Shown piece by piece: positions 21,616 to 52,247 of a stretch of DNA of 64,000 nt. The notes below the pieces were generated by a model. That model saw nothing but the letters and a program-made list of their open reading frames with translations, did not search any database and was not told the origin of the DNA. A program made the position numbers and the translations under genes. Each line of letters opens with the position of its first letter. The first letter of the stretch is position 1. The DNA is taken from assembly GCF_964355755.1 (NCBI RefSeq), contig NC_092673.1, positions 25,848,269 to 25,912,268 of the forward strand, in the 5' to 3' direction. This stretch comes from Antedon mediterranea (lineage: Eukaryota > Animalia > Echinodermata).

Positions 21616-23307
21616 ATGAGTCTGCCGAACTTTGTAGAATTGGGAAAGAAGATTGTGTGTGTTGGTAGAAATTATGCGTAAGTTATTAGCCTTAGTTAGC
21701 AGGTAGGTCTGCCTAGCTAGGCCTAATTAATAGGAGGCCTGACTGCTAGTAAACAAACACTCAGCAGCCCAGTGAGATCTATCCTATAGAGAAGCCTTCG
21801 GGTACATTACTCATTTTTTCCACATAATAGATTCTATTCGGACAAAAACTTTGTGACGACAGAATTCATTCTATGTAGACAAAATTCATTCTGTGTAGAC
21901 AGAATTCATTCTGTGTCAAAAAAATTCATTTTGTGTCAACAAAATTCATTTTGTGTCAACAAAATTAATTTTGTGTCGACAAAATTCATTCAGTGTCGAC
22001 AAAGTTCATTTTGTGTCGAAAAAATTCATTTTATATCGACAAAATTAATTTTGTGTGCTGAGCCTACTCAAGAGTGAGACAGAACGTTTTAACATGCAAA
22101 TTAGAAGGCAGAGTTTTTAATGGAGCCTCAAAGATTGACAGTTATATTAATTTTATTTCCCCAACCTTTTCTACTAACACTTTATAATTACTTGATTTAC
22201 CAGCAACAGTCCAATATAATTATGGAAGTCTTAGTTGAGCAGCAGTGAAATAAAATTTGATGATCGATACTGAAAAGAAAGACACGCATTTTAAGTGTAA
22301 TGAAGCATCTTTATTTAAAACCCCATGCGTCGACTATACCAATTGTTCTTGTTATTAAAGAAATGTCTAATATTGCTTCAACATGGTAGAGACTAACTAG
22401 GCTACTACTAGAAGTGTACAAGAGCCTAGGCCTAGACTAAACTGTCATTTATAATATTTTAATGCCATATGGTTTTTTCCTGAGAGTTGCCGTCAACCAA
22501 TAATAATGCCCTAGAAAATGTTGTACCCAAAATTTCACTAAACTGTCTTTTTACAAATTTTTAGAGATCATGCCGTGGAATTGGGGAACGAAGTTCCAAC
22601 AGAACCACTGTTATTTTTAAAGCCGACTACGGCATACTTACAAGAGGGAAGCTTAATTAAGGTAATTTTGTGTTGTTTTTAGTGAAAATACAGTCTATAG
22701 AAGCCCTTATTTGGGACACTGTCACACCCCTCTATTCATTTGATATTATTTTCTAATATAGGTAATAATAGATAATTAATTCAGCATTGCAACATCTACG
22801 AATAATTCTTGTTAATGCTTCTAGATGCCTCCTGGTTGTACAGACCTTCACCATGAAGTTGAGCTTGGAATTGTCATCGGAACCAAAGGTTCCAACATCC
22901 CAGAAGCATCAGCAATGAACTATGTTTGTGGGTATGTTCTGGGTCTTGACATGACTGCTAGAAACCTTCATGATGCTGCTAAGAAGAATGGTCATTCGTG
23001 GACGCTAGCAAAGTCATTTGACACGTCTTGTCCCATTAGTAAATTTGTCGAAAAAGATTGTGTAAAAGATGTTGATAATGTAAGATTATGGTTGTCCGTT
23101 AATGGAAATATGCGTCAAGACGGAAACACAAGCGATATGATTTTTAAAATTCCAACACTTATTAGTTATATTAGTCGTTCGATGACCCTTGAACCTGGCG
23201 ATGTTATATTAACTGGGACCCCCTCTGGATTTGGACCAGTAAAGTCTGGCGATGTCATTGTGGCTGGTCTAGACCAACTCCTGGAAATGTCTTTTACAGT
23301 CGCCTAA
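21616..23307 (+). CDS. FAHD1: FAHD1-like acylpyruvase / oxaloacetate decarboxylase (fumarylacetoacetate hydrolase domain protein), copy A, 3 exons, 213 aa.
   Basis: join(21616..21677,22565..22661,22825..23307). The translation is [21 protein letters not shown]|[32 protein letters not shown]|[19 protein letters not shown]...[11 protein letters not shown]...TVA*. It aligns residue-by-residue with human FAHD1 ([57 protein letters not shown]). Donors are GTAAGT and GTAATT, acceptors are TTTTAG and TTCTAG, and the phases are consistent (62+97+483 = 642 nt). Confidence 0.9.
21850..22065. repeat. Tandem array of about 20-22 bp (gtgtcgacaaaattcattttgt-like, about 10 copies) in intron 1 of FAHD1 copy A.
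   Basis: Copy B has no counterpart. The array is part of a roughly 560-bp insertion (21815-22375) relative to intron 1 of copy B. Confidence 0.8.
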
Positions 23308-23404
23308 TTTCCGATTACTGTATAAATAAGGTTTTAATAGTCTATCTGTTGGAATTTGTTGGTGGGTATTGAGCAAATTCTAGGAACCTCTGGACGTAAC
23401 CAAT

Positions 23405-23495
23405 AAAAGTGTTAAACTTGCCTCAATTGATATAAGACTCTGAGCTTTATTGGTTTCAAGAGTATTTTGATCTCGAACAGTGGCGAGTTCTAGGT
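23405..23495 (-). pseudogene. Orphan fragment of the MVP penultimate exon (its 3' end plus 11 nt of the following intron) lying downstream of FAHD1 copy A.
   Basis: 23410-23490 is about 90% identical to 27936-28016. The latter is the real 3' end of the MVP exon at 27947..28138 plus its GC donor. Translated on the - strand it reads ...[28 protein letters not shown]. Homology stops abruptly on both sides. Confidence 0.6.
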
Positions 23496-24472
23496 CTGAT
23501 CGCCAACCCACAGTAAATGTAAAATGTGCTAATTTACATGCAAAACTATTATAGGCCTTTAAAACAAAATAATCTGATCTACCTATTGTAAGTTGCTGAG
23601 CATATTTGTTAAATATTATCCACTGCAATAAGAGATTACTGCAGCAATCTGGGATTAGGCCAAATCTTCGCAAAGTGTATACTTGTTTACTTAAATATGA
23701 CCGGCCACTTACCGGCGTTCCCATCTTATTTAGGCCTACGTGTGGGTATAATTATTATGTTTTCTTTGTAGAAAGCAAAGTGTTGCAGATGCCATATTAA
23801 ACTATTGAGTTTCTAAAATACTTCCTTCATGATTTATTATTTTAAATTATTTTTATATTATAGTTTATTATAATGCCATGTTTGTACGCCCACCTGTATT
23901 CAGATATGCCATAACACACACTACCGGCGGTGAACCTAAGTATTGCTGGTTTTCCATGTGCACGTATTGCAGTTGTTACAATTATGGAAAGTCATCACAA
24001 TTGCATTGGAAATTTAACTGGCTTATGCTTCATTTATCTTTATATAATTATGCCTCCACAATAAACTACTGTACGCCTACGAACTTCATTTCCATGACTT
24101 TTTTTAAAACCACGTTTGGCCAATTTGTTGTGTTTTTCACAGGTGACCATTGAGGAAACAATAATTGATCTAAAATTATATATTTTCCTCCATGAGTAGA
24201 CAAATATCCCATAATTTAATGACATTACTGAAACAATAATGATAATAAGTTGTGAAAGTTGTAAGTAGGGGAAATCCAGTAGGGGAAATCCCCGAATTCA
24301 TGCGACACACCGGAAGAGCATACCACATATATTCAGTCATGCGTGACAAAACGTTACCCTGGATATCGGATCGTCGATCAAGTGTGTGGGCCTGTACAAG
24401 ATGTTTCTAAAACCACCCGGTATCGTCATATGATCTAAACTTCTTGTTTGTAGTAGACATATTGATGCAAAA

Positions 24473-25597
24473 ATGAGTCTGTCGAAATTTGTAGAATTGG
24501 GAAAGAAGATTGTGTGTGTTGGTAGAAATTATGCGTAAGTTTAGTGGCCTTTTAGATAGTTATCAGGTAGGCTAGGTCTGCCTAGCTAGGCCTAGCTAGG
24601 CCTAGTGGTAGGCCTGACTGCTAGTAAACAATCCTATGGAGAAGCCTCCGAGTAGCCTGCTTCGACATGGTAGAGACTAACTAGGCTACTACTAAAAGTA
24701 TGCAAGGGCCTAGACTAGACTGTCATTTACATACTTTATTACCATATTGTTTTTTGCAGAGAGTTAATAAATTAATAGCGTAGGTCCCCTAGATGATTTT
24801 GTATCCAACATTGCACAAAATTGTTTTTTTACATATTTTTACTTTTATTTAGAGAACATGCTGTGGAATTGGGGAACAAAGTTCCAACAGAGCCACTGTT
24901 GTTTTTAAAGCCGACTACAGCATATTTATCAGAGGGAAACTCAATTAAGGTAATTTTGTGTTTATATACATTTGGTTGTTTTTAGTGAAAACGCAGTCTA
25001 TAGTCTACAGTCTATACCCCTCTATTTATTAGATTTTATTTTCTAAAATAGGTAATAATAGATAATTTATTCAGCATTGCAACATCTACGAATAATTCTT
25101 TTTAATGCTTCTAGATGCCTCCTGGTTGTACAGATCTTCACCATGAAGTTGAGCTTGGAATTGTCATTGGAACCAAAGGTTCCAACATCCCAGAAGCATC
25201 AGCAATGAACTATGTTGGTGGGTATGCTCTGGGTCTTGACATGACCGCTAGAAACCTTCAAGATGCTGCTAAGAAGAAAGGTCACCCGTGGACACTAGCA
25301 AAGGCATTTGACACGTCTTGTCCCATTAGTAAATTTGTCGAAAAAGATCGTGTAAAAGATGTTGATAATGTAAGATTATGGTTGTCTGTTAACGGAAATA
25401 TGCGTCAAGACGGAAACACAAGCGATATGATTTTTAAAATTCCAACACTTATTAGTTATATTAGTCGCTCGATGACCCTTGAACCTGGCGATGTTATATT
25501 AACTGGGACCCCCTCTGGAGTTGGACCAGTAAAGTCTGGAGATGTCATTGTGGCTGGTCTAGACCAAGTCATGGAAATTTCTTTTACAGTCGCCTAA
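24473..25597 (+). CDS. FAHD1: FAHD1-like acylpyruvase, copy B. It is a tandem paralogue of copy A, with 3 exons and 213 aa.
   Basis: join(24473..24534,24853..24949,25115..25597). It has the same exon structure and phases as copy A and is about 92% identical in protein ([21 protein letters not shown]..., VGGYALG versus VCGYVLG, and so on). Both copies are intact with conserved splice sites. Confidence 0.9.
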
Positions 25598-26734
25598 CTT
25601 CCGATTATAAATATGGTTTTAATAGAATTTGTTGGCGGGTATTGAGCAAATTCTAGGAACCTCTGGACATATCCAATAGTGAAACCGATTGTAAAACATT
25701 TGATTGGGTATTATTAGCCAAATAACAGATTGTTTTTGTGCAGTTTCCAGCTGCAACAATTCCTAAAATAATTAAAGTACCTGCAGAATAAATAATACAG
25801 TATGTGTTTGATGATTGTAGAAAATATGTTGTTATGGATGCTATTAAAAACAGTCAATTATGTTTTGCAAATAAATCTACATTTTATTATTTAATTATCA
25901 TGCATAATATTGTATTGATATGTAGGAAACACAGAAAGTGTATTCACAATAGTTTAGATTATACACTGTTTTTTTTTCTTGAACTGTGGTCAATAAAAGA
26001 ATTAAATTCACAATTTAGTTTGTAAACACGTTTCATGTGACCTGATCTTTCTTTGTATAGACAATGTAGGTATATGTATACATTGGTTCATAATTATAGC
26101 ATACCTATATTATTTTTTTTTTCACAATAAACAACTGAATACACATACATATATAAAATATTAATCTTTAGGTAAGCCTAAAATACCACTATTATCAATT
26201 AGAAAAAATAATAAAAAAACTAAATATTACATTAAAAAAAATATAAACTCAATATTGCATAACATATTCTCTATGCTTCATTACCTCTTGTTTAACAATA
26301 AGCATGCCATGCTATTATCTTTGAGAACCATTAACCTTTTTGCAAAGTTTGAAACACTACAATACTCATGTTAATAAATCTAACATCTTAAAATAGTGCT
26401 GTATTAACATTTTTTATGACATAATGTTTTTTTTTATTTTTTATTTTATTGTGCATTTTAAGAAATGTTATGGTGCCTGTTCCTGTTATTTACTATGCTG
26501 TATATGCTTTTTTTTAAAAATTGTATTTTTTTTTAAACAATTTCTTATTTTTTCAGATGGGTTTTAAGATTAGTTTCTAGGTGACACATCTGTGAATGCT
26601 GTTATTTCTTTACACGGTGAGTTTTCTGATTTTTTTTCTGCATACTGCATGTATATATCTTTTACAAAATGGTTACTTCTATTGCAAAATACAGTTAACA
26701 ATACAAAAATAAATAGACTACTCTTACTACTAAT

Positions 26735-26858
26735 GCTCTGTCTACACTATCAAACTAGGTTGACGACAAAAAAAAGTGTAGTAATATGACATGTTCATAG
26801 ATGGGTACATCACATTTTTTGGTCACATAAAGTTTGATAGTGTAGAGAGAGCTTGAGG
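26735..26858. mobile_element. MITE copy with both terminal inverted repeats, in the FAHD1-B / MVP intergenic region.
   Basis: It begins gctctgtctacactatcaaactag and ends ctttgatagtgtagagagagct. Confidence 0.75.
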
Positions 26859-27026
26859 TTAAATAATATATGAATAAACATTTTATTCTCCGACATAAAA
26901 TAGAATATAACATTATATATAATTCTTTTTGTAAACTACTGTAGGCCGCAATTCCTAAATCATGGGATAAAATTTTGGTTAAATTCAAACAAGTTTCCAT
27001 TTCAATGTATTTACTTGGCGTATATT

Positions 27027-30000
27027 TCACTTGGTACCAATAAGACCATGAGCCGTATTTAAAAGGTTGATGGGATTGTTGCCATCGGTGATAAAAGTGG
27101 TCTCAAGTCCAAGTGCTTTCAGCAACTTAACCTGGTGAAAGAGAAATAAACAGATTAGCATTCTTGGTTGTTGTTTTTTTCAATTTCATACGCATTCAAC
27201 AGCAAGCACAGACTCACCAATTACTGGATGAATAAACTATTTTATAATTGTGATGCTCATAAACTAAGTCTCATTTAAGGCTTAGGGAGTGGAATTGAAA
27301 GAGTCGTGAATTACAACCCTGGCATGGTCAGGATTGAACCATGGACCTTGGGATTGGAAGGCAAACACGTTAACCACCAAGCTACAGCTCCACTTGTCAT
27401 GGTAATTGTAATGGTTGGAACAGTCACAGATGGATGCAGTCTATATGAATGTATGTACCCTATCCTCCTTACCTGCATTTCTGGACCTGCAACTGCTATA
27501 CCTGATATTGTATCTGCTCCTAGAGTATTAACAATCTTCTTAAACTTGGATACCTATTTTTTAAAACAATCATTCTTAGTTTTAGGCTCGGTATGAATTG
27601 AAGAAGACTAAAATTTGCTGGAAACTTTCTTCGCAATAAAGAAGAAATCATTGCTGTGGCAGCCAAAACATGTGCTTGCAAAAAAAGGATGACCAGCACT
27701 CACATACATTTATGTACTAGAGGCGGGTTCTGGTATGCAGAGAGATGAACTGGCTGTCACAATGGCAGATAGGAAGTTATAGAGGAATCTAGTCATATAA
27801 GTTTGGATATGTCCTGAGCTAAGTAAGTTAGTAATGAATTATGAAGAAATAAATTATAAAAGCCCAATAGTCTGTTAAAAAAACAAACTGATAAAAATAA
27901 TTGAATGAGAAAGCGAGTACTGTATTCTAAAAAGGGTTAAACTTGCCTCAATTGATGTAAGACGTTGAGCTTTATTGGTTTCAAGATTATTTTGATCTCG
28001 AACAGTGGCGAGTTCCAAGTCACGAAGTATAGTTGTAGTATCCAAATCTGATGCGTGTAGAATCTCATCGGCCTGCGCCTTCAGCTGGGCGGCTACTATC
28101 TCACTCTGGCACTCAATACGAAGCTTTTCTGACTGGGCCTAAAGATAATTTTTCATATTTGTTTTTATTATTTATTTTTCACCCGTCAATGTATCAGATA
28201 GGATTAAAGAAACCAGTCCGCCCTCATATCCTTCCCTCATGCGTCAAAGTTCATAAAAATCCACCCCTGATAATCAACATTGTTTGATGAACTGGTGCTA
28301 CAATTTTCTCTTCAATTATCAAGCATAATCACTTTTATCATAACTTGCCAAAATAACCAGGCCCATCACAGCTACCCCTGGATCTTGTAAATTCCAGCCA
28401 AATAGGTAAATAAATGCCAACCAAGCCCCCGACCAAGCCCTAATCAACTAAAGTCAACTACAAACAAAATGTTTACCGATGCTTCTGCCTTAGCCTGACC
28501 ACTTGACTCAATAGCAGCTGTCACTGCTTGTAGAGAATATAGCTGACATCTTGCCTTCTCTGCTTCTTTCTCATTGGATAGTTTCTGACGTTCTAATTCA
28601 CCTTTAGCCTTCTGCTCCATTCTGCTTGCCTCGTGCTCTGCTGATGCCTCAACAGATCTTTCATAAAGACTTATAATTAATAGTCTTGAAATCTTTCATA
28701 TTCAAAAACTTAGTTTTATTGAAATAATCTTGTAAAATAGTTCATATGTGGCCAACTAGTCCTCGGTACTGTATCTAAGTTTTCTAGTAAAATGTGTTTT
28801 AAATGTGGAGCCTGTCTCATAGGTCCTAACAATAATCAGGGCCTTAACCAGAATGAGGTAGAGAAGTCACTCCAACACAGCTTGTATACCCACTTATTTT
28901 AATCTCTCACAGACCTGATAGTTTATCAGCGTATTCACCCGCTTTAACCAAGATAGGAACTAGCATTCGCCGTCACAATGTATTTCAATGTCATAACTTA
29001 TTAACGTATTAATGGAACTGCCATACTCACCTTGTTGCTATTTCAATTGCCATTTGAACAGATTTCATCAGACTATCTCTCATATGCTTGTCAACAGGCT
29101 CAATACTTTGTACGTCAACATTGGTGATCACCTTTCAGGTAAAACAATCATTACTAACAAATTAATATATCGCACTATCTTTATATTTAAGGCTACAAAG
29201 AAACAACAACTAAACCACTTCAAAATAAAAATACCTTCAAAATATACATAGAACCTTTCCTGAAAACCTAACAAGGGGCAATATATGTACAGTATGTCTT
29301 CGCAATAATGGACAGGGGTCATAGAAAGGTCATAAAGGTCATGTGCATCACAAAAACATTAAAGAAATAATCCTAGATACAGTAGTATTAAAAGATACGA
29401 AACCATTTTAAAAGCATTATTTTGATTCCTCAGAAAAGCATGGGTGGGAATTATAATTTTATATATAAAATGTTATGTTTTACCAGTTGATTGGCCTCAA
29501 AATAGAGTCTATCTAACACCTTTCCATTGTCATCCACACCAAACACAGCAGCCCGTATTATCTTCACTGAAAACTTGTGGAATTCATCGAAACGAATGCG
29601 GGATACTGCACCTCGAATTCTGCCTCCTAAGAGTGAATTGATAACAAGTCTGGTAAGTTTAGTCATTTTTTTAAGCTCTAGTGATAACAGTTGTTCAGAT
29701 GTGATTGTGCTTAAGTATGAAAGCTTAAAATAGCCACCCACACTCACCATTATCAATTACTTGATTCACTTATAAAAGACTTACCAATCTCACGACAAGC
29801 AAATCCTATAAAATCTGGAACAGAAAAGATAGCCTGCTCTGACTTTTTGTCACCTTTTTTCACCTGTAAAGTGTTAATAGTTAATGGACAGTAAAGATAT
29901 ATTCTTAGAATTCTGAAAATAATTCATTATTTTAAATACAGTAGAACTGTAGAACTTTTTACTTAATAGTAGTTATAACCCTTTAATAATGGCTTCCACT

Positions 30001-33000
30001 TAATAATGGCTTCCCCCTTAATAATGGCTTCCCCCTTAATAATGGCTTCCACTTAATAATGGCTTCCCCCTTAATAATGGCTTCCACTTAATAATGTCTT
30101 CCTCCTTAATAATGTCTTCCCCTTAATACGGGTTACATCTTAATAAGGGTTTACCTGTTATAGGGGTTAGCCCTTAATTAGTGTTCCCCATAATACTGTA
30201 GGAAAGGAGGCGTTCTACTGTAATAAAAAGCAACCAATTTATACCTCAAAATGATTATTGCAGGCAATCTTGATTCGCAGTCTTGCATGGTCGGAAGTTT
30301 CTACCTGAAAGATTTGTTTAAAAAAAATTGTTTTGTTCTGTAATCAGTCTCTGTGATATTTCTTAACCAAGACTTTTATTGGTCGTTAGGCCATCAAGAC
30401 AGGGATGGTACACAAATGAGACGGTACCTGACTATGATGCATGTGTGTATTCTATACCATCATAGTAAATTAACATCTCCCTTTGCATATCATCCCAAAA
30501 CACTGAGCTCGCTATTTTGTGGCAATTAACAGAAATTTACCTCAATGATATCTGTGATGTAGTCTGGACCGAGCATTAGGCAAATTGTTTGAAGTGCATT
30601 TTCTCGTTTTGGCTTGCCAGCTGTAAGATAATAAATACTTTAATCTTAATTAAGTTAAGCGTGAAGTTAAGTTAGGAATTAAGATTAATTAAGACCTGTA
30701 CATCAGATATAGTTCAGCTAGAAAACAATGGAAGATAGCCGAACTACTTACTAAATCTTAACCTGACCCTCTAAATAATCTCTCACTATAAAGTACAAAG
30801 AAATCAAACTCCATACATCCACATTCAAAGTCTAGTCAATCCATTCTACTACACACACGGCTCAACAGAAAGTGTTTACATTAGTAAATTGTAGTTGGGT
30901 CAGTTCTTTATGTCACACCTTATGGATATGAATATAATGAAAATTCATGTTTATTTTGTGACGTTTTATGAGGGGTTCCCAACTGATGTACGAAAAGAAA
31001 TGTTGCGGTCAGGCTACTGTATCATTATGCTATATCCATATTAAAGCTATACAGGTAGGTATTCTTGAATACAGTAGTAAACAATGAGTTGTTACTTTAC
31101 CACTAAGGCTAAGAATATTAAAGTCTTCATGTGGGCCTAGGATTGCCATATCAGGACCAAACACAACTCTGCCAGTCTTCTCTTTGTATTTGTAAACCTA
31201 AAATGGTATGGTAAATTTAATACAATATTGCTTCCAATTTAATAAAATAATATTGTAACGGTAAAATAATAAAAATCAGTACCACTCTATGTATTTCAGA
31301 AAATTTCTATTCTAACAATACCTGAACAGCTGTGTTTCCTGGGCAACGATATGTAACGACTCTAGTTTTATCTCTTCCCTAGAAAAACAAAAGATTATTG
31401 TAAAGAAAAATTAAATCTGAGTTTATTTATTTTGTTTACAATGGATTGAAATTATCTACTCTCTTCCCAATAGTTGTACACACAGACTACCACAGCCTCT
31501 CAAGCTATAGGTAATCCCCTATTTAAAAGTACGCCACAAAAGTCATAACAAAAACATGAATTAAAATGGCTCATCAATTCAACAACGTAAAAATACTTAC
31601 CTTTTTACTAACATATTGTGGATCGATCGATGCTTCAAAATAAGCCATTTTGCGAATGTCATCAGCGCCACATCCACCCCCATTTCTGAAATGGAACACT
31701 TTCATTTTAACACAAGAAACGGATATACATACTTTTTACTACCTATGAACTGCATACTTTTAAGGAAGAGTACTGAGATTTGTAAACTAAATATAAATAA
31801 TTTATATCTTCCAGAAAGAGCTCACTTTAGTATTTCTTCAACTAGTGGTAATAACTTTTTTTCCCACAGCTCTTCATATTCCTCGAGAAGATACGATTGA
31901 GGACCCATGACCGCTCGAATCTTTCCCGTTTGTAAATGTCGAATGTAGATTCCTTCATTTTCTGCAAGAGATATGGCTTTCCTGAAAGGTAAAATAAACA
32001 AACACTGTTTAAAATTAATATCAATAATATAAAACAAAAAACAAAACACTGAAAAAAGAATCTAGGCCATAGGCATGAAATAGAGCATTAGCTTTCTTAA
32101 CCAACCAATCAAAACTCTGCTTACAGTACTATTGAATGGCAAACTAACCTTACAAAGCCACGGTCGTCTTGTTCCATCACATGCACCTGAATGGGTGGTA
32201 TGTATGATGCAGGCCCTTTGATCATCCATCTGTCCCCAGCCTTCCTTGATGGTTTACCTGCATATAGAGAACAATACATAGGTCGCATATGTCATGCCTC
32301 TGGACCAAGCATACAGATACAGTACATACAACAGGTTTGCAGGGATTGAATAGATTTAACACTAAAGCTCTGTCTACACTATCAAATGTATAGCTTTGCA
32401 GGGATTGAAAAAGTTTAACACTGAAGCTCTGTCTACACTATCAAATGTATAGCTTTGCAGGGATTGAATAAGTTTAACACTAAAGCTCTGTCTACACTAT
32501 CAAATGTATAGCTTTGCAGGGATTGAATAAGTTTAACACTAAAGCTCTGTCTACACTATCAAATGTATAGCTTTGCAGGGATTGAATAAGTTTAACACTA
32601 AAGCTCTGTCTACACTATCAAATGTATAGCTTTGCAGGGATTGAATAAGTTTAACACTAAAGCTCTGTCTACACTATCAAATGTATAGCTTTGCAGGGAT
32701 TGAATAAGTTTAACACTAAAGCTCTGTCTACACTATCAAATGTATAGCGTTGCAGGGTTTGAATAAGTTTAACACTAAAGCTCTGTCTACACTATCAAAT
32801 GTATAGCTTTGCAGGGATTGAATAAGTTTAACACTAAAGCTCTGTCTACACTATCAAATGTATAGCTTTGCAGGGATTGAATAAGTTTAACACTAAAGCT
32901 CTGTCTACACTATCAAATGTATAGCTTTGCAGGGATTGAATAGATTTAACACTAAAGCTCTGTCTACACTATCAAATGTATAGCTTTGCAGGGATTGAAT

Positions 33001-36000
33001 AAGTTTAACACTAAAGCTCTGTCTACACTATCAAATGTATAGCTTTGCAGGGTTTGAATAAGTTTAACACTAAAGCTCTGTCTACACTATCAAATGTATA
33101 GCTTTGCAGGGATTGAATAAGTTTAACACTAAAGCTCTGTCTACACTATCAAATGTATAGCTTTGCAGGGATTGAATAAGTTTAACACTAAAGCTCTGTC
33201 TACACTATCAAATGTATAGCTTTGCAGGGATTGAATAAGTTTAACACTATAGCTCTGTCTACACTATCAAATGTATAGCTTTGCAGGGATTGAATAAATT
33301 TAACACTAAAGCTCTGTCTACACTATCAAATGTATAGCTTTGCAGGGATTGAATAAGTTTAACACTAAAGCTCTGTCTACACTATCAAATGTATAGCTTT
33401 GCAGGGATTGAATAGATTTAACACTAAAGCTCTGTCTACACTATCAAATGTATAGCTTTGCAGGGATTGAATAAGTTTAACACTAAAGCTCTGTCTACAC
33501 TATCAAATGTATAGCTTTGCAGGGATTGAATAAGTTTAACACTAAAGCTCTGTCTACACTATCAAATGTATAGCTTTGCAGGGATTGAATAAGTTTAACA
33601 CTAAAGCTCTGTCTACACTATCAAATGTATAGCTTTGCAGGGATTGAATAAGTTTAACACTAAAGCTCTGTCTACACTATCAAATGTATAGCTTTGCAGG
33701 GATTGAATAAGTTTAACACTATAGCTCTGTCTACACTATCAAATGTATAGCTTTGCAGGGATTGAATAAGTTTAACACTAAAGCTCTGTCTACACTATCA
33801 AATGTATAGCTTTGCAGGGATTGAATAAGTTTAACACTAAAGCTCTGTCTGAACTATCAAATTTTATGTGACAAAAAATGAAGTGATCACACATTTTTTG
33901 TCAAACTAGTTAGTCATACCGTGAACTGCATCATCAATGAAATCTTCAATTGCCAGCAAAACTATCGCCTCATCTTCTGAGAGTACAAACTCTTTTTGAA
34001 TACCCTCTGGAATTCGTTCATCTAAATTAAGAGAATACCAGATGGAAGGTTAAAACAATTTCAACCATCTTTACATGGTCAAATCTTTCAGATAAACAAT
34101 TTTAGGAATTGGTACATTTTTTAGTACATTTAATTATGTATTTCTTGATTAAAATAAATAAAAAACCTTACTTGGATTGAGGAAGAAGCTTGTAACACCC
34201 TTGCGAAGTTCTTTTTGTCCAAGTCTCGGCCTTCCTGTCGAATTCACTGGATCGTGAATAACACAATATTCACCTTTAGCTAAAACTTTCTTTGTTACAA
34301 TGTCTGCCACAACCTGTAAACATACAATGATTTGAAACTGGATCAGAAAAAAAATGATTTACCTGAAAAAAAAATGTAATTTAAAGCAAGTCAAAGAATT
34401 ACAGTTTTTTTGTTTTTGTTTTTATAGAAGTGAATAACTTTATTAAAACTGCAAAATGGCCTATTTAAAGTCTGATTTTATTAATCTTAATTTTTCATGT
34501 TTTTGGAGGAAACATAACAGTATACATAACATAAAAGTAACATAGCGAACATGTCACTGTTTGCATTAACATTTCACTTTTTAAAACAGTAAACTGAAAA
34601 TTGTTTTTCTTTAGCTCAAAAAATTGACCCAAGTGTTTTTTATTTTGTTTTTAGATAATGGTTTTAACAGCCAGAAAATATGCTAGTTCTATGCAGATAA
34701 CCATTCCTCAAAGATGTAAGTGTTTCATAGTTTTTTTTAAATGTATTTGCAGTACCTCTCCAATCTCTGGAATATATGCCTCAATATCGTTTTTTGTGAT
34801 CAACCATGTTTGGCCCGACTTTCTTTCACGGCCAAGTCCATCAACGCAGGTCTGCTCAGCAACCATGTGTAAGCCAAGGTTGTCGTTTAGAATGTACGCT
34901 TTGACTTCTTCCAAATACTCCTCATAGACACCAGGAAGGTATGCTCCTGGTGTTCTAACTAACCACATCTCATCTGTTACACGATTCCTGTGTTTAAAAA
35001 GAGAGGCACAATAAAATTGCTCAATTTAACTGACAGATATTCACCATATTTAGCACCTAAAGCTCGGTCTACACTATCAAACAAAAAGTGTGTGATGTGC
35101 CCAAATATGGTAGTGATATGACATCATTTCTATATATTGGCACAACACTTTTTTTGTCAAACTAGTTTGATAGTATAGATAGAGCTTTAGAATTATCACA
35201 ATGTGTTATAAGCTACTGGTTATACCATGGAGAAATAAGTTAGTTAACTTATTTCTCCATGGTTATACATACTGCAGAGAATATTTACTTTTATTATGAA
35301 AGAACAAGGTAGGAAAAAAGATAAAAAGAACTTTGTAGGCAGACCATTCTGTAATAAAAAATATTCAAACCCATATTAAACCAGTTACTGCAGAAGTTTA
35401 AAAAGGGAAAATCAAGCCAAACATTAATGTATACTAACTTTCCATTGTCATCGGTAAAATCTTGTACAGCTCTCATTTTTAGTGCATGTCCTTCCTTCAC
35501 GATAAATGGCTTAATAATCCCCAAAATTTCCTGGAAAAAAGGTTTGAAAATAAATACGTCTACATTGCTTAAAAACACCTGTTTTTGTAAACTATTGAAC
35601 TTTTTAAAAACTTACTACATTAGGATTTGGGTAATATGTCAACGGACCAATAAGCTGAAAGCAATCACCAGCGGTACGCTGAACATCGCCATCCTGGTGA
35701 TCCAGAAGAACTTGAAGTCTAATGGCATGATTTGATTTAACAACTGGTAAAGGGCGCACAGCTTTTGAATATGAACCACCTGAAAAGACACAAAAATCTA
35801 TAAATCTATGACACTTTCAACTTTTAAAAATTCAATCCAAAATATTACTGATTAAGTATTAAGTATCTTTTACCTTGAATTCCTTCAATTTGTTATATAT
35901 AATGTATGTTTTTGTAGATATTTACCTAAATGTATATCTATCTATAAATGTGTGTGTACTACAGTTTTGTAAATTACTTGGTTAGTTGTCTTTGAATTAT

Positions 36001-37909
36001 TGTTATTATATTGTAAATGTTCTCTACTGAACCACTTCAATCAATGATTTAGCACTGAGTGAAAGCGTCATTCAATATAATGACAGAATAAATAATAATT
36101 ATTACATTGGAGCAGGTGAAACCTATTAATCTGTGTATTGAAATTATTTTATGCTTGCTTCATTTCCATATTTCGCTTTACTAATTTAATAACCTGAATA
36201 CATACAGGCTAATGTAGAGTAAAAAAATAACAAATTTAGTTTGCAATGTCATAATTTACCTTTAGAGATATATTCTTCAGCGTTGACAAGAATCTCGCCT
36301 GGATACAGAGGAAATGGTGCCTAAAATTAAAGAAAGACTGTTTTATATGAAATTTAAATGAATTTTCTCTGCTTTGATACAACATACAGTAAACCAGACA
36401 CAATAACTGACACACTCACTTAGAGATCATGATATTGTTTATATCATTTACCTGGTGAAATCGAACATCAAAATGGCCATGTTCTACCTCGCATTGTTTA
36501 CCTTCTTCCAATTTTCTAAAAAAACAAAATTATGTAACAAGTTAAAAATTGTTAATTAAAAAATACTAATACTGGTTCAGTCCATGTGATTTACGAATGA
36601 GGTCGGGGTGGGTGAAACCTTATACTAGATGGAAGGTGAGGGTGAAACCTTATAGGGTGAGGGTGAAACCTTATAGGGTGAGGGTGAAACCTTATAGGGT
36701 GAGGGTGAAACCTTATAGGGTGAGGGTGAAACCTTATAGGGTGAGGGTGAAACCTTGTAGGGTGAGGGTGAAACCTTGTAGGGTGAGGGTGAAACCTTAT
36801 AGGGTGAGGGTGAAACCATATAGGGTGAGGGTGAAACCATATAGGGTGAGGGTGAAACCTTATAGGGTGAGGGTGAAACCTTATAGGGTGAGGGTGAAAC
36901 CATATAGGGTGAGGGTGAAACCTTATAGGGTGAGGGTGAAACCTTATAGGGTGAGGGTGAAACCTTATAGGGTGAGGGTGAAACCTTATAGGGTGAGGGT
37001 GAAACCATATAGGGTGAGGGTGAAACCTTATAGGGTGAGGGTGAAACCTTATAGGGTGAGGGTGAAACCTTATAGTAGGGTGAGGGTGAAACCTTATAGG
37101 GTGAGGGTGAAACCTTATAGGGTGAGGGTGATTTCTCATCATCTCATCTTAGATTTATCCATGGTGTTCCTACTTTACACACAAGAGTATGACACTATCG
37201 GTAACTGCATGCAATTTAAAGTCTTCTAAGTTATACTTGTTGGTTATCGTATCGGCACAGGTAACAGGTACATGGACCATATTGATAACGTACATAGAAA
37301 ATAGTAAATTACATGCAAAGTTGACGTGCTGTAATAGTCACTCCCCGTACAAGAGTATGCAGAAATTGTTCTTATTTTCTTACTTGACTGGGTTTTTAAC
37401 AGTGCAATAACCAGCTGGTGGTAATATTATACAAGACAGCGGTCCAGCTAATAGTTTCTCATTTGATTGCAGAACAAGACGTTGAGGACCCGTCTCAAGA
37501 TGAGTAATGTTGGTTGACTGAAAAAGAACAAAAACAGATTAGTGAAATGTCAATCGACCCAGTGAATTGTTTTGGTCGGACCAGATTTATAAATTAAAAT
37601 AATGATATAAGAAGAACATTTATAATGATTGATATTGCAGCTCATTATAATTCAATAAAGACAATGAATTTATGTGAATAGTCTAGGATGAGGTAGTAGC
37701 ACCTCATACAGAAGGAAGCCACTTTCTTACTTCCCATTATAGTTGTTCTGTTGAATGTTGTTTGTTTTAGGAATAGAGGATCAGGAGAGGTGGGCGTACA
37801 AAAACATAAAACTGGTCCAACAAACTGTATGTAGGCCTATGCCCGAATTCTATCATTATCATACCAAATCAAGAACGTGCACAAACTCTGTAGGGCCTAT
37901 TCCTATCAT
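27027..37909 (-). CDS. MVP: Major vault protein (MVP), 23 coding exons, about 853 aa.
   Basis: complement(join(27027..27131,27473..27553,27947..28138,28477..28657,29031..29131,29484..29626,29785..29863,30244..30303,30541..30620,31101..31197,31322..31378,31601..31685,31826..31981,32149..32257,33920..34021,34172..34313,34756..34987,35439..35530,35616..35779,36260..36320,36452..36515,37384..37517,37865..37909)). Exon translations match human MVP block by block: [36 protein letters not shown]-like [118 protein letters not shown]...[17 protein letters not shown], and [27 protein letters not shown], followed by a stop. All introns are GT-AG except a GC-AG donor at 27945-27946. Phases are consistent throughout and the total is 2562 nt. 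Exon 1 ([15 protein letters not shown], donor GTATGA) is the least certain. Confidence 0.82.
27175..27430 (-). mobile_element. tRNA-derived SINE copy (the tRNA-like head reads on the - strand) in the MVP intron before the last coding exon.
   Basis: The - strand reads tggagctgtagcttggtggttaacgtgtttgccttccaatcccaaggtccatggttcaatcctgaccatgccagggt, with box A (TAGCTTGGTGG) and box B (GGTTCAATCC) motifs. It is about 85% identical to the copy at 41110-41345. Confidence 0.7.
29983..30180. repeat. Tandem array of about 20 bp (cttaataatggcttccccc) in the MVP intron.
   Basis: Seven to nine head-to-tail units, decaying at the 3' side (cttaatacgggttacat...). Confidence 0.8.
32339..33850. repeat. 59-bp tandem satellite, about 25.6 copies, inside the MVP intron between the exons at 32149..32257 and 33920..34021.
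   Basis: The unit gcagggattgaataagtttaacactaaagctctgtctacactatcaaatgtatagcttt repeats head-to-tail with a few point variants (gaatagattt, gggtttg). The unit contains the MITE terminal repeat aagctctgtctacactatcaaa. Confidence 0.9.
35058..35190. mobile_element. MITE copy with both terminal inverted repeats, in the MVP intron.
   Basis: It begins aaagctcggtctacactatcaaa, is followed by gtgatgtgcccaaatatggtagtgatatgacatca..., and ends tttgatagtatagatagagcttt. Confidence 0.8.
36603..37131. repeat. 21-bp G-rich tandem array (agggtgagggtgaaaccttat, about 25 copies) in MVP intron 2.
   Basis: Perfectly periodic with variants ccttgtag and ccatatag. It produces the artefactual repeat ORFs RVRVKPY and HPHPIRF in the six-frame track. 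Confidence 0.9.
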
Positions 37910-41700: not shown

Positions 41701-42581
41701 AGATCTACCCTGTGAATGCCATTGCCTTTCATAGTGGGCATAATACATTTGCAAGTGGAGGCTCTGATGGATTCGTAAACATCTGGGATGGATTTAACAA
41801 GAAGCGGCTATGTCAGTTTCATAGATACCCTACCAGTATATCATATTTAGCTTTCAGGTAATGAACGATATAGTATATAAGCCCCTTCTAGGGTATATAC
41901 TTGCCTTACCCTAAACCCAGTGAATGTGTCCTTCCGGCCTAGGATTCCACAAATGTACTAATTCTGTCTAATGCACATAATAATGCCCAATAATTTCTAA
42001 TTATTGACAAATGCAAATTTTCTTTTTTTATGATCCAATATGTTTGAATATAATTGTAAACAGCGAAAGTAAAAAGTAAGTTTAAGATTTTAATTCAAAC
42101 ATGTGAGATCATATCAAAGGAAAATTTGCATTTATCAATAATATATAAAGATCCAGATGAATCTTTTCACTAATTTCCAATTTAAAGAATTAAATAGTGA
42201 TATTAGTGATATGCCCAAATATTGTAGTGATATGGCATCATCATGTCCATATATGGGCACATCACATTTTTTTGTCACATAAAGTTCCAGATCCAGATTT
42301 TATTCTCGAGTATGAGCCCACTCTGGGGTATAATGTCCATATATGGGCACATCACATTTTTTTGTCGCATAAAGTTCCAGATCCAGATTTTATTCTCGAG
42401 TATAAGCCCACTCTGGGGTATAATGTTACTAATTATTTTAATGATTTTCTCTTTTAGTCATGATGGTAGTATATTAGCAATCGCTTCATCATACATGTAC
42501 GAAAATGGTGACATTGATCATCCTGATGATGCCATTTTCATCAGAAAAGTTACCGACCAAGAAACCAAACCAAAAATTTAA
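38726..42581 (+). CDS. BUB3: Mitotic checkpoint protein BUB3 (WD40), 6 coding exons, 326 aa.
   Basis: join(38726..38923,39232..39301,40000..40151,40795..41058,41685..41857,42458..42581). It begins [45 protein letters not shown]...AVLDCCFY|[23 protein letters not shown]|[51 protein letters not shown]|[70 protein letters not shown]...YAFKCHRLK|...[36 protein letters not shown]|[16 protein letters not shown]...KPKI*. It is near-identical to human BUB3 over its whole length. All introns are canonical GT-AG with consistent phases (981 nt). The ATG lies 8 nt after an acceptor (TATTTCAG at 38711-38718), which implies an upstream 5'UTR exon. Confidence 0.92.
41110..41345 (-). mobile_element. tRNA-derived SINE copy in BUB3 intron 4.
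   Basis: It is homologous to 27175-27430 along its whole length (ctcatttgaggcctagggagtgagttgaaagagttgcgagttacaacc...ggattggaaggcaagcaagttaaccaccaatttacagctcca). Confidence 0.7.
42207..42425. mobile_element. MITE-related internal segment, partially duplicated in tandem, in BUB3 intron 5.
   Basis: gtgatatgcccaaatattgtagtgatatggcatcatcatgtccatatatgggcacatcacatttttttgtcacataaagttccagatccagattttattctcgagtatgagcccactctggggtataatg is followed by a second partial copy. Confidence 0.6.
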
Positions 42582-42848: not shown

Positions 42849-43015
42849 AAGTTCTGTCTACACTATCAAACTTTATGTGACAAAAAATGTGATGTGCCCA
42901 TATATGTACATGATGATGTCATATCACTACCATATTTGGGCATATTACTTACCATATTTGTGCATGTCACACTTCTTTTGTCAAACTAATTTGATAGTGT
43001 AGACAAAGTTCAAGA
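42849..43015. mobile_element. MITE copy with both terminal inverted repeats, just downstream of BUB3.
   Basis: It begins agttctgtctacactatcaaa and ends tttgatagtgtagacaaagttc. Confidence 0.8.
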
Positions 43016-43417: not shown

Positions 43418-46400
43418 GCATTAATGTCAAAAGTGGTTATGATAGCACAATTGACATGCGCAGAACCCATTATTCGATTCTGCGCATGTTTATTATGCGA
43501 TAGTAACCATTTATGTCAAAAAATAAAAGGGTCAAAAATCGGCCATTTTTCGGAAAATGGCCAATTTTCTACCTTTTTATTTTTCGATAAAACAGGTTAC
43601 TATAGCACAATTAACATGAACAGAACTCATTATTCGACTCTGCGCATGTTTATTATGCGATAGTAACCATTTATGTCAAAAGTGGTTATGATAGCACAAT
43701 TGACATGCGCAGAACCCATTATTCGAGTCTGCGCATGTTTATTATGCAATAGTAACCATTTATGTCAAAAAATAAAAGGGTCGAAAATCGGCCATTTTTC
43801 AAAAATTTCCCTGTACTATAGTACAGGGATTTTTTCTAAAAATGGCAAATTTTCGACCTTTTTATTTTTCGATAAAACGGTTTACTATAGTACAATTAAC
43901 ATGCGCAGAACGCATTACTCGACTCTGCGCATGTTTATTATGCGATAGTAACCTTTTATGTCAAAAGTGGTTATGATAGCACAATTGACATGCGCAGAAC
44001 CCATTATTCGACTCTGCGCATGTTTATTATGCAATAGTAACCATTTATGTCAACAAATAAAAGGGTCGAAAATCGGCCATTTTTCGGAAATTTCCCTGTA
44101 CTATTATAGTACAGGGATTTTTTCTAAAAATGGCCAATTTTCGATAAAACGGGTTACTATAGCACAATTAACATGTGCAGAACCCATTATTCGACTCTGC
44201 GCATGTTTATTATGCGATAGTAACCATTTATGTCAAAAGTGGTTATGGTAGCACAATTGACATGCGCAGAACCCATTATTCGAGTCTGCGCATGTTTATT
44301 ATGCCATAGTAAACATTTATGTCAAAAAATAAAAGGGTCGAAAATCGGCCATTTTTCGGAAATTTCCCTGTACTATAGTACAGGAATTTTTTATAAAAAT
44401 GGCCAATTTTCGACCTTTTTATTTTTCGATCAAACTGATTACTATAGCACAATTGACATGCGCAGAACCCACATTTCGACTCTGCGCATGTTTATTATGC
44501 TATAGTAACCATTTATGTCAAAAGTGGTTATGATAGCACAATTGACATGCGCAGAACCCATTATTCGACTCTGCGCATGTTTATTATGCAATAGTAACCA
44601 TTTATGTCAAAAAATAAAAGGGTCGAAAATCGGCCATTTTTCGGAAATATCCCTGTACTATAGTACAGGGATTTTTCTAAAAATTGCAAATTTTCTACCT
44701 TTTTATTTTTCGATAAAACGGGTTACTATAGCACAATTAACATGCGCAGAACCCATTATTCGACTCTGCGCATGTTTATTATGCGATAGTAACCATTTAT
44801 GTCAAAAGTGGTTATGATAGCACAATTGGCATGCTCAGAACCCATTATTCGACTCTGCGCATGTTTATTATGCAATAGTAACCATTTATGTCCAAAAATA
44901 AAAGGGTCGAAAATTGGCCATTTTTCGGAAATTTTCCTGTATTATAGTACAGGAATTTTTTCAAAAAATGGCCAATTTTCGACCTTTTTATTTTTCGATA
45001 AAACGGGTTACTATAGCACAATTAACATGCGCAGAACGCATTACTCGACTCTACGTATGTTTATTATGCGATAGTAACCATTTATGTCAAAAGTGGTTAT
45101 GATAGCACAATTAACATGCGCAGAACCCATTATTCGGCTCTGCGCATGTTTATTATGCAATAGTAACCATTTATGTCAAAAGTGGTTATGATAGCACAAT
45201 TGGCATGCTCAGAACCCATTATTCGACTCTGCGCATGTTTATTATGCAATAGTAACCATTTATGTCCAAAAATAAAAGGGTCGAAAATCGGCCATTTTTC
45301 GGAAATTTTCCTGTATTATAGTACAGGAATTTTTTAAAAAAATTGCCAATTTTCGACCTTTTTATTTTTCGATAAAACTGATTACTATAGCACAATTAAC
45401 ATGCGCAGAACCCATTATTCGACTCTACGTATGTTTATTATGCGATAGTAACCTTTTATGTCAAAAGTGGTTATGATAGCACAATTGACATGCGCAGAAC
45501 CCATTATTCGACTCTGCGCATGTTTATTATGCAATAGTAACCATTTATGTCAACAAATAAAAGGGTCGAAAATCGGCCATTTTTCGGAAATTTCCCTGTA
45601 CTATAGAACAGGGATTTTTTTCTAAAAATGGCCAATTTTCGATAAAACGGGTTACTATAGCACAATTAACGTGTGCAGAACCCATTATTCGAGTCTGCGC
45701 ATGTTTATTATGCGATAGTAACCATTTATGTCAAAAGTGGTTATGGTAGCACAATTGACATGCGCAGAACCCATTATTCGAGTCTGCGCATGTTTATTAT
45801 GCAATAGTAACCATTTATGTCAAAAAATAAAAGGGTCGAAAATCGGCCATTTTTCGGAAATTTCCATGTACTATAGTACAGGAATTTCTTATAAAAATGG
45901 CCAATTTTCGACCTTTTTTATTTTTCGATAAAACGGGTTACTATAGCACAATTAACATGCGCAGAACCCATTATTCGACTCTGCGCATGTTTATTATGCT
46001 ATAGTAACCATTTATGTCAAAAGTGGTTATGATAGCACAATTGACATGCGCAGAACCCATTATTCGACTCTGCGCATGTTTATTATGCAATAGTAACCAT
46101 TTATGTCAACAAATAAAAGGGTCGAAAAAAGGCAATTTTTCGGAAATTTCCCTGTACATAGTACATGGATTTTTTCTAAAAATGGCCAATTTTCGACCTT
46201 TTTATTTTTCGATAAAACGGGTTACTATAGCACCTTTAACATGCGCAGAAGGCATTATTCGAATCTGCGCATGTTTATTATGCGATAGTAACCTTTTATG
46301 TCAAAAGTGGTTATGATAGCACAATTGACATGCGCAGAACCCATTATTCGACTCTGCGCAAGTTTATTATGCGATAGTAACTATTTATGTCAAAAGTGGT

Positions 46401-51762: not shown

Positions 51763-51915
51763 AAGCTGTCTACACTATCAAACTAGTTTGACAAAAAAAA
51801 GTGTTATATGCCCAAATATGGTAGTGATATGCACAAATGTGGTAGTGATATGACATAATCCTGTCCATATATGGGCATATCACATAAAGTTTGATAGAGT
51901 TGACAGAGCTTAAGG
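51763..51915. mobile_element. MITE copy with both terminal inverted repeats.
   Basis: It begins agctgtctacactatcaaactag and ends aagtttgatagagttgacagagctt. Confidence 0.8.
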
Positions 51916-52103
51916 GACAAAACACATAGCGATCTGTGTACAATATATAAACAACAAGTTATTCCAAACAAAATACACAATGAACAAACACCAATGGAAG
52001 AGAAACATTACATTTGACAGAACCAAAATCCACCCAATTTCCAAGGCAATAAATTAATACAAAAATTTCTATTTAAAAAATACTTTTTTGTACATCAACT
52101 TAA

Positions 52104-52247
52104 ATCTGTTTACACTATCAAACTACTTTGACAAAAAGTGTGATGTGGCGAAATATGGTAGTATTATGACCAAATATGGTACTGATATGACAACCCGTGT
52201 ATATTTTGTCAAAGTAATTAATTGATAGTGAAAACAGAGCTTTAGAT
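52104..52247. mobile_element. MITE copy (diverged).
   Basis: It begins atctgtttacactatcaaa and ends attgatagtgaaaacagagcttt. Confidence 0.7.

Follow-up and report, generated by a model that had tools for sequence, protein, structure and literature searches.

An intron of the MVP gene of Antedon mediterranea contains a minisatellite of about 1.5 kb, made of 26 near-identical units (25 full and one partial), whose probable source is the insertion junction of a foldback MITE that targets TA, amplified in place. The array lies in the window, by which we mean the whole 64,000-nt stretch of DNA that was analysed, and as a single-locus run of head-to-tail, highly identical copies of a 59-nt unit, within the 10-100 nt expected, it counts as a minisatellite. 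The features that make up the locus are the following.

33920 to 34021, minus strand: MVP coding exon of 102 nt, for which an orthologous 102-nt exon is present in Anneissia
32258 to 33919, minus strand: MVP intron, phase 1, 1662 nt, with GT at 33919-33918 and AG at 32259-32258
32148 to 32257, minus strand: next MVP coding exon, from the spliced translation
32336 to 33862, no strand assigned: 59-bp tandem array of 25 full units and a final 52-nt unit, from TRF, an in-register listing and 22-mer matches
33811 to 33862, plus strand: final 52-nt unit (S0), consisting of X, TA (33838-33839), the terminal inverted repeat (TIR) with two substitutions (33840-33861) and T, and joining the resident MITE
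33840 to 33910, plus strand: resident MITE fragment, in which one TIR is intact and the interior is shortened (TTTTATGTGACAAAAAATG...CACATTTTTTGTCAAACTAG)
33911 to 33912, no strand assigned: TA adjoining the resident MITE towards the exon, read from the sequence

The window matches the MVP gene of A. mediterranea, and the best matches are MVP-like proteins with PF01505, PF11978 and PF17794-6. Exons for the Vault repeat and the MVP shoulder domains are present and orthologous to annotated MVP, and the exon cores are 100% identical to the annotated A. mediterranea MVP-like protein P0001. The exon that an earlier note on this DNA had placed at 33920..34021 has exactly these bounds, and when it is spliced to 32148-32257 the translation is found verbatim in P0001. 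The array-bearing intron is spliced out cleanly in the mRNA-based protein model, and the array together with the MITE fragment makes up about 95% of its 1662 nt. The orthologous phase-1 intron of Anneissia japonica measures 267 nt and contains neither the array nor a MITE, and no TIR motif was found in 27.9 kb of this species.

TRF places the array, previously claimed at 32339-33850, at 32336-33862, with a period of 59, 25.9 copies (25.88), 98% matches, 0% indels and a score of 2942, the copy number being that of a single assembly. Each unit consists of a 27-nt segment that we call X (TTTGCAGGGATTGAATAAGTTTAACAC), the dinucleotide TA, the 22-nt TIR (AAGCTCTGTCTACACTATCAAA), a T and the heptanucleotide GTATAGC. 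The earlier note had found the terminal repeat in every unit, and the 22-mer is indeed present in 26 of 26, exactly in 23 of them, with one mismatch in two and with two mismatches in the last. TA and TIR have the same orientation throughout, X always lies on their outer (flank) side, and the left edge of the array at 32336 begins at X without GTATAGC. Eleven variants, private or shared, are scattered through the units in a non-periodic pattern and without any indel; GA in units 1, 11 and 19 and A30T in units 16 and 24 are common to non-adjacent units, and the units at the array edges are more divergent than the rest. When the array was tested for higher-order structure, mismatches were lowest at an 8-unit shift (1.42% versus about 1.9-2.1%), which is only a weak signal. 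The array does not fold as a hairpin (DNA-fold z +1.9), it holds no ORF of at least 25 aa starting with ATG, GTG or TTG, and an Rfam scan of the array and the MITEs gave no match.

The motif AAGCTCTGTCTACACTATCAAA is the terminal inverted repeat of a foldback MITE family. In the 64 kb there are at least 8 full copies of 112-170 nt, with TA flanks, and at least four fragments, and these elements resemble TA-targeting MITEs of the Tc1/mariner or Stowaway kind in being short (<800 nt), non-coding and dispersed, with a TIR of 22-23 nt, AAGCTCTGTCTACACTATCAAA(C), at both ends. The copies that had been cited at 26735, 35058, 42849 and 51763 are confirmed, as inverted motif pairs bound short elements at these places.

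26733 to 26854, no strand assigned: full copy of 122 nt, inverted motif pair, hairpin z -7.9
35060 to 35187, no strand assigned: full copy of 128 nt in another MVP intron, with TA on both sides, hairpin z -7.3
42849 to 43011, no strand assigned: full copy of 163 nt with internal 21-22-nt repeats
51763 to 51911, no strand assigned: full copy of 149 nt with internal 21-nt repeats, hairpin z -5.3
52103 to 52242, no strand assigned: full copy, inverted motif pair and BLAST
52480 to 52644, no strand assigned: full copy, inverted motif pair and BLAST
56783 to 56921, no strand assigned: full copy, inverted motif pair and BLAST
9897 to 10066, no strand assigned: full but diverged copy with three 21-nt internal repeats, inverted motif pair and BLAST
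614 to 714, 4384 to 4480 and 42204 to 42286: MITE fragments

The family shows a TA target-site duplication, with TA next to 9 of the 19 termini in strict register and next to about 14 once indels of 1 nt are tolerated, at a background TA frequency of 0.105; a 3-nt TWA duplication is the less likely alternative. At 2 of the 18 other MITE termini the similarity to the unit reaches 7-9 nt beyond the TA (TTTARCAC), an extension that could reflect either a preference at the target site or an element that ends slightly further out. Intact MITEs fold into long hairpins (DNA-fold z -5.3 to -7.9) and carry internal 21-nt tandem repeats in variable copy number. No transposase ORF was found in the window, in which ORFs of at least 130 aa are only repeat-derived or belong to an FAA-hydrolase. 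A metagenome scan with the exact 22-mer returned one contig, L002, which bears a solo TA and TIR beside non-MITE sequence and contains no repeat, no partner TIR and no ORF.

At its exon-proximal end the array runs into the resident MITE. A MITE-like fragment had been claimed here at 33845-33910, and the 26th unit does continue into MITE interior, with the fragment occupying 33840-33910 and the last unit entering the interior at 33862/33863. As the array is physically continuous with the resident MITE, the transposon end appears to have been amplified in place within the MVP intron. The fragment gives a 75-nt BLAST match to full copies over the interval 33840-33914, retains a weak residual hairpin (z -2.1) and ends 10 nt from the splice donor of the MVP exon 33920-34021. 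Its exon-proximal TIR is deleted except for one T, and therefore this copy cannot transpose. The TA at 33911-33912 and that at 33838-33839 form a putative target-site duplication pair.

The earlier claim that the unit is built from the MITE TIR is correct as far as the significant TIR similarity goes, but it does not extend to the unit as a whole. Unit positions 28-51/52, that is, the TA and 22-23 nt of the TIR, align to the MITE and make the monomer homologous to a transposon segment over 24-25 nt, or about 41% of its length. The remaining 34-35 of the 59 nt show no similarity to the transposon, with a score of 17 against all 8 MITE copies on both strands versus 17.4 +/- 2.5 for shuffles. A search of the rest of the window with the non-TIR 35 nt gave 12/12 as its best match (E 0.11), and neither X nor the 59-nt unit recurs in the 64 kb, despite at least 12 MITE copies or fragments. 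That the 35 nt derive from the interior of the MITE, or from its opposite TIR, was rejected, the alignment score being at the shuffle mean, and TGTATAGCTT, considered as a decayed 3' TIR end (TGTA[GACAG]AGCTT), is part of the same non-significant alignment. Eight other arrays in the window were checked for MITE content and showed none. As only 24-25 of the 59 nt are MITE-derived and the rest is unmatched, the unit, judged by its sequence, is a chimera of the insertion junction and not the TIR alone.

Although the similarity between unit and MITE is short, the probability that it is a chance or low-complexity match is negligible. With up to 3 mismatches, the 22-mer has 37 matches in the window, 26 of which sit inside the array at one per unit, versus 0.00 expected from 100 dinucleotide-preserving shuffles. 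The local alignment of unit and MITE scores 43 against a shuffle maximum of 29, with blastn-short E values down to 3.6e-7, and the similarity includes the TA flank and goes on into MITE interior in the last unit. The 22-mer also has 1.87 bits per base and 11 distinct dinucleotides, and the concern that the similarity might be of low complexity or non-significant, which the earlier note had itself put up for checking, is thereby ruled out. Short near-identical tandem repeats are liable to assembly error, but it is very unlikely that the array or its length arose artificially from a shorter repeat, given that the variants are scattered, non-periodic and free of indels, as is typical when a long-read assembly contains a real array, that the flanks are unique and that the gene model is intact. 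The identity of the unit would be unaffected even if the copy number were wrong. A double insertion, in which each junction would hold a complete element with its target-site duplication and both TIRs (McGurk & Barbash), does not explain the array, as each unit has one TIR in a single orientation and no element body.

The 59-nt repeats might also be part of a larger mobile element, either a Tetris- or FB-like foldback element or a tandem-repeat-bearing MITE variant, whose subrepeats contain the terminal motif; the array and the MITE block would then have arrived whole by transposition, and X would be element sequence. The MITEs are foldback-like and already carry internal tandem repeats in variable numbers, satellites are known to be seeded by foldback elements whose TIRs contain tandem repeats (PMC4079207), and the TA and 22-nt terminus also stands beside non-MITE sequence in the unrelated contig L002, so that this terminus belongs to more than one context. 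We nevertheless consider both the larger element and the arrival of the block as a whole unlikely, since neither the left edge (32336) nor the exon side shows an inverted TIR or an inverted array, X lies outside the TA and TIR, X and the unit occur only here in the 64 kb, and the match in L002 comes without a repeat. A composite-transposon structure was likewise rejected, as the left array edge has no inverted terminus. A selected function of the array, as transposase-binding sink, intronic regulator of MVP or small-RNA source, could be imagined because 26 consensus copies of the TIR, the transposase-binding region in TA-targeting elements, stand within a conserved gene; the array TIR equals the family consensus, from which all dispersed termini in the window depart by one mismatch or more. 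Such a function is nonetheless highly improbable, as the array is absent from Anneissia, shows no Rfam match, ORF or structure, and has a high identity that is accounted for by recent expansion. Moreover, arrays are commonplace here, since tandem arrays make up 14.7% of the window. The array is most likely neutral.

Formation in place from the insertion junction can be laid out in four steps. The flanking TAs suggest that a MITE entered a then short MVP intron, which reconstructs to about 114 nt, at a TA lying 8-9 nt downstream of its splice donor. The exon-proximal TIR was subsequently deleted, leaving 1 of its 22 nt and immobilising the copy, as the fragment shows. Thereafter, a 52-nt segment would have been duplicated once, with the 7-nt filler GTATAGC at the new joint; this segment spans 27 nt of neighbouring DNA from outside the MITE, the TA, and the distal TIR up to its nt 23. 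Such a single junction-spanning duplication is proposed because 25 x (52+7) + 52 equals 1527 nt and both array edges coincide exactly with ends of the 52-nt segment, and the array length suggests that it was followed by unequal exchange or slippage. Finally, unequal sister-chromatid exchange, replication slippage or both would have multiplied the 59-nt unit to about 26 copies and homogenised them, as indicated by the 98% identity, the variants common to non-adjacent units and the greater divergence of the units at the edges. What provoked the initial break or template switch was probably the strong tendency of the MITE to form a hairpin. At 13 of 19 family termini the base directly inside the TIR is C, and the array units and the resident fragment have in common the minority state T. 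Its position suggests that X is ancestral intron DNA; X alone shows no homology to the Anneissia intron, and the reconstructed 114-nt intron shows no similarity to it either (24.5 versus 26.6 +/- 4.8 for shuffles). An exact source of the filler was sought within +/-400 nt in both orientations and none was found, and an inverted near-match, CTGTATGCTTGG at 32305-32316, which agrees by eye at 10/12 with a gap, was treated as chance.

A second, independent chimeric duplication is found elsewhere in the window.

42204 to 42426, plus strand: 90-nt unit in 2.0 copies with 97% identity (TRF)

Its unit joins a MITE interior fragment without 3' TIR to 46 nt of non-MITE DNA, with a 4-nt ATGT microhomology at the boundary, and the MITE BLAST intervals are 42204-42286 and 42330-42376. 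Two MITE copies, 33840-33910 and 42204-42286, have lost exactly one TIR with the break at its inner edge, and the array unit also breaks there, after TIR nt 22-23; the solo TA and 22-mer of contig L002 likewise adjoins unrelated DNA. It is a doubtful extrapolation that the 22-nt MITE terminus is a recombination-prone module that breaks repeatedly at its inner edge; if true, hairpin- or transposase-directed breaks at the TIR edge that seed junction duplications could drive the high tandem-repeat load of the crinoid genome.

Several known systems resemble the Antedon array. In Xenopus, Xstir tandem repeats accompany the MITE Xmix (Hikosaka & Kawahara 2004, as summarised in PMC12628747 and Table 1 of PMC9659126); in these summaries the repeat unit likewise shares sequence with the terminal part of the MITE, composite MITE-array structures occur, and the trigger invoked is a hairpin formed by the MITE, as it is here. 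Xstir is described as a genome-wide family with a unit from MITE sequence, whereas the Antedon unit consists to more than half of outside DNA and is known from one locus. The foldback transposon Tetris and the TIR-220 satellite of Drosophila virilis (PMC4079207) provide another non-autonomous foldback-type element whose TIR region is the building block of kb-size arrays. The TIR-220 repeats, however, pre-exist as internal tandem repeats in the Tetris TIRs and are dispersed in beta-heterochromatin, while in Antedon the TIR tip and its outside flank were amplified in a euchromatic intron. Like the Antedon MITEs with their 21-nt repeats, miDNA4, which is a Xenopus tropicalis MITE of the Tc1/mariner type and holds an internal satellite (Scalvenzi & Pollet 2014, via PMC12628747), and the bivalve MITEs DTC84 and pearl/CvA (cited in PMC12628747 and PMC9659126) are presented there as TA-type families with internal tandem repeats of variable copy number, for which microhomology-mediated replication or repair errors have been proposed. 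In these MITEs the repeats sit between the two TIRs and are carried along when the element moves, whereas the Antedon array lies outside the element body and has a TIR in each unit. In D. melanogaster, tandem dimers of hobo, Bari1 and R1 expand into arrays by an initial duplication and subsequent unequal exchange, with identical junction motifs in all units as in Antedon; TIR deletions at the junctions are common, and one euchromatic private array has about 16 copies (PMC5932611). Their units are whole elements from double insertions, in contrast to the single TIR without a body in Antedon. The Sobo satellite of Solanum bulbocastanum is listed in Table 1 of PMC9659126 (Tek et al. 2005). Sobo is, like the Antedon array, a recently amplified and locus-restricted tandem repeat. 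Its monomer is reportedly a chimera of an LTR-like retrotransposon segment and unrelated genomic DNA. It differs from the Antedon array in its kb-sized monomer, its LTR element source, its plant host and its megabase scale.

To call the locus a clear case of satellite birth, as the earlier note did, exceeds the evidence, since a single 1.5-kb array of the 59-nt unit is seen, with none elsewhere in the 64-kb window, and the phenomenon is documented in other animals; a dispersed family of the unit may exist in the Antedon genome. Tandem repeats derived from transposon ends have been described (Xstir/Xmix, Tetris TIR-220 and miDNA4; PMC12628747, PMC9659126 and PMC4079207), and the Antedon array is another instance of this known seeding and introduces no new principle. 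No echinoderm example of a transposon-derived tandem repeat was found in the literature searched. We think that the significance of the locus is that it is an unusually readable early stage of such repeat formation, in which the source element, the TA of the insertion site, both array edges and the 7-nt junction scar are all still visible. The founding event can therefore be reconstructed as a single junction-spanning duplication, in contrast to double insertion or the expansion of internal repeats. The locus also indicates that host DNA can form part of a transposon-derived repeat and make it a chimera, and a repeat-library search with such a monomer would consequently give only a partial match. 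For the MVP gene, it means that an intron at a conserved position has been enlarged about 15-fold by the array, with the annotated splice undisturbed.

Tandem Repeats Finder places the array at 32336-33862, with a period of 59 nt, 25.9 copies, 98% matches, no indels and a score of 2942. In an in-register listing, the consensus is matched exactly by 15 of the 25 full units and the others differ from it by one or two substitutions each, while the 26th unit is partial (52 nt). As claimed in the earlier note, the 22-mer AAGCTCTGTCTACACTATCAAA is present once in each of the 26 units, exactly in 23, with a changed first base in two and with two changes in the last. Outside the array it has 11 matches in the window at up to three mismatches, compared with none expected from 100 dinucleotide-preserving shuffles. 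Exact copies in the window are restricted to the array, and none of the dispersed MITE termini is exact, which is consistent with an array that froze and multiplied a consensus-state terminal inverted repeat (TIR).

The MITE family sharing this terminal repeat, postulated from the sequence, proved to be real, with eight inverted pairs of the 22-mer 112-170 nt apart and three fragments:

9897-10066, inverted pair, internal repeats at 9926-9990
26733-26854, inverted pair
35060-35187, inverted pair
42849-43011, inverted pair, internal repeats at 42920-42970
51763-51911, inverted pair, internal repeats at 51806-51852
52103-52242, inverted pair, internal repeats at 52151-52191
52480-52644, inverted pair
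56783-56921, inverted pair
614-714, fragment
4384-4480, fragment
42204-42286, fragment

The termini combine a common 22-23-nt TIR with two subterminal sequence types, CTAGTTTGAC... and CTTTATGTGAC..., one per end. The interior holds one to three copies of a 21-22-nt tandem repeat, TGCCCAAATATGGTAGTGATA, so that the family itself is a tandem-repeat-containing MITE of variable copy number. A TA adjoins about 14 of 19 termini (background TA frequency 0.105), which points to a putative TA-targeting, Tc1/mariner- or Stowaway-like non-autonomous element; no transposase ORF was found in the window. The exact 22-mer has a single match in metagenome contigs, in the 2.1-kb contig JAAUYM010039078.1, where a solo TA + 22-mer at 317-340 adjoins the unrelated inner sequence ATGAATTCCTGG..., and the contig contains no partner TIR, no repeats and no long ORFs. 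This match, which bears on the 22-nt terminus only and not on the 59-nt unit, shows that the terminus exists as a module separate from the body of the MITE; it may belong to a related element of larger size and form its end.

When the unit dimer was aligned locally with all eight MITE copies on both strands, unit positions 28-51, that is TA and the 22-nt TIR, were aligned every time (score 43; shuffle mean 16.6, maximum 29; blastn-short E down to 3.6e-7). The shared stretch has a complexity of 1.87 bits per base and is thus not the low-complexity resemblance against which the earlier note had cautioned. The other 35 nt, TGTATAGC and the 27-nt segment X, TTTGCAGGGATTGAATAAGTTTAACAC, score 17 against the MITE copies, where shuffles average 17.4, and lack a match in the rest of the window (best 12/12, E 0.11). 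Transposon end thus accounts for about 41% of a chimeric unit, and about 59% of it is DNA of another kind.

In all units X is found external to TA and TIR, in the place taken by flanking DNA at ordinary insertions. The flank outside the TA at two other MITE termini (35049-35059, 26855-26863) is similar to the final 8 nt of X (TTTARCAC), which may be due to chance or to a weakly preferred target site. From X-TA-TIR the last unit runs on, up to 33910, into sequence typical of the MITE interior (TTTTATGTGACAAAAAATG...CACATTTTTTGTCAAACTAG), so the MITE-like fragment described at the array end is indeed there. At 33910 the second, exon-proximal TIR is reduced to one T, followed by TA (33911-33912) and GTCATAC, the reverse complement of the first seven bases of the intron; with a TA on either side, this resident MITE is TA-bracketed, and its exon-proximal TIR is short of 21 of its 22 nt. 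Immediately interior to the TIR, the array units and the resident fragment have a T where 13 of 19 family termini have a C; this small shared minority state favours the resident copy as the source of the array. At 1527 nt, the array measures 25 x 59 + 52, or (S0 + GTATAGC) x 25 + S0, where S0 is X, TA and 23 nt of TIR. Its left edge adjoins the start of X and its right edge the MITE interior; GTATAGC occurs between copies only and was not found within 400 nt on either side of the array.

The host gene was identified from minus-strand stop-free stretches, which form a complete series of exons of the major vault protein gene (MVP). The stitched exons retrieved MVP-like proteins, best the annotated one of the feather star Antedon mediterranea (P0001; exon cores 100% identical), then that of Anneissia japonica (P0002). 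The joined translation of exons 33920-34021 and 32148-32257 is present verbatim in P0001, which defines the intron:

32258-33919, minus strand, MVP intron, 1662 nt, phase 1, GT...AG ends, from the spliced-exon match to P0001

Array and MITE fragment make up about 95% of it. In the 27.9-kb Anneissia MVP locus the same 102-nt exon and phase are found with an intron of just 267 nt, which contains no tandem repeat, and the TIR motif is absent from the whole locus. Without MITE and array, the Antedon intron reduces to a 114-nt reconstruction in which no similarity to that of Anneissia is detectable, so it is only the position of X that suggests its being ancestral to the intron. MVP-FAA hydrolase synteny is common to the window and Anneissia. 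Downstream of MVP lies a rearranged segmental duplication (22374-23496 vs 24658-25678 and 27930-28021); its two copies of a ~1-kb block, 86% identical, each carry a 160-aa FAA-hydrolase ORF (22825-23307, 25115-25597), and the upstream one (22374-23405) is fused to 92 nt that duplicate part of an MVP C-terminal exon (92% identity).

Of the window, 14.7% consists of tandem arrays; among the nine of them, the 59-nt array alone contains MITE sequence. The others include:

53609-55307, 19 nt x 89, no MITE sequence
36635-37131, 21 nt x 23.5, in another MVP intron, no MITE sequence
29979-30128, 18 nt x 8.6, in another MVP intron, no MITE sequence
13625-14423, 137 nt x 5.7, no MITE sequence
21850-22056, 20 nt x 10, no MITE sequence
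3381-3845, 163-nt complex array, no MITE sequence
43546-47485, complex array of ~4 kb whose periods of 89, 285 and 374 nt are nested (higher-order structure)

The 89-nt unit of the last contains a palindrome, CATGCGCAGA...TCTGCGCATG, and related sequence, with an inverted piece, reaches ~125-300 nt leftward. The mir-252 microRNA precursor family is also matched twice in the window over its full length, on the same strand and ~4 kb apart (8123-8195 and 12088-12163, both minus; 62.2 and 61.2 bits, gathering score 45).

Chance resemblance of unit and MITE is excluded by the alignment score, its E-value and the zero 22-mer matches expected in shuffles. An assembly artefact is unlikely, as variants are scattered among the units. 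A Tetris-like composite foldback element whose arms consist of subrepeats is disfavoured: an inverted terminus or inverted array is lacking, X is placed external to the TIR, and the 59-nt unit is absent from the remainder of the window. Nothing supports selection for a function, given that the array has no ORF, Rfam match or structure, is absent from Anneissia, and belongs to a class of repeats that is commonplace here.

What is observed is a resident one-TIR MITE, a junction-spanning chimeric unit, exact array edges and high homogeneity. We infer that a TA close to the donor site received a MITE, which then lost one TIR; the 52-nt junction segment would next have been duplicated once, leaving a 7-nt filler at the joint, the signature of end-joining or template-switch repair. 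The 59-nt unit would then have expanded by unequal sister-chromatid exchange or slippage. This last step is supported by the recurrence of a GA variant in units 1, 11 and 19 and of A30T in units 16 and 24, and by a minimum of inter-unit mismatches at an 8-unit shift (1.42% vs ~1.9-2.1%), a weak signal. As single-stranded DNA the MITE copies form long hairpins (z -5.3 to -7.9 vs shuffles), and a hairpin-forming MITE is a plausible trigger. The same family provides a second, smaller junction-type duplication of the same style at 42204-42426, where a MITE interior fragment that lost its 3' TIR 2 nt in is fused to 46 nt of non-MITE DNA, giving a 90-nt chimeric unit x 2.0 (97% identity) with 4-nt ATGT microhomology at the boundary. 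The view that the array was born from a transposon end thus stands in part: it arose in place from a MITE end, but the greater part of its unit is not MITE, and the array is at most a candidate satellite.

DNA-transposon TIRs are a recognised source of tandem-repeat monomers, and hairpin-, microhomology- and unequal-exchange-based mechanisms have been reviewed (PMC12628747 sections 3-4; PMC9659126 section 2.2, Table 1). Among the closest cases are Tetris TIR-220 of Drosophila virilis (PMC4079207), the hobo and Bari1 dimer expansion in D. melanogaster (PMC5932611) and, as summarised in PMC12628747, Xstir/Xmix in Xenopus and miDNA4 in Xenopus tropicalis. Unlike these four, the MVP-intron array amplifies neither whole elements nor sequence internal to the element but the junction between the TIR tip and the outside flank; it is known at one locus only, and its host is a conserved crinoid gene, in which it occupies an intron. 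A literature search returned nothing relevant on links between MITEs and satellites in echinoderms. The phenomenon is already known, and the MVP-intron array is an added instance of it.
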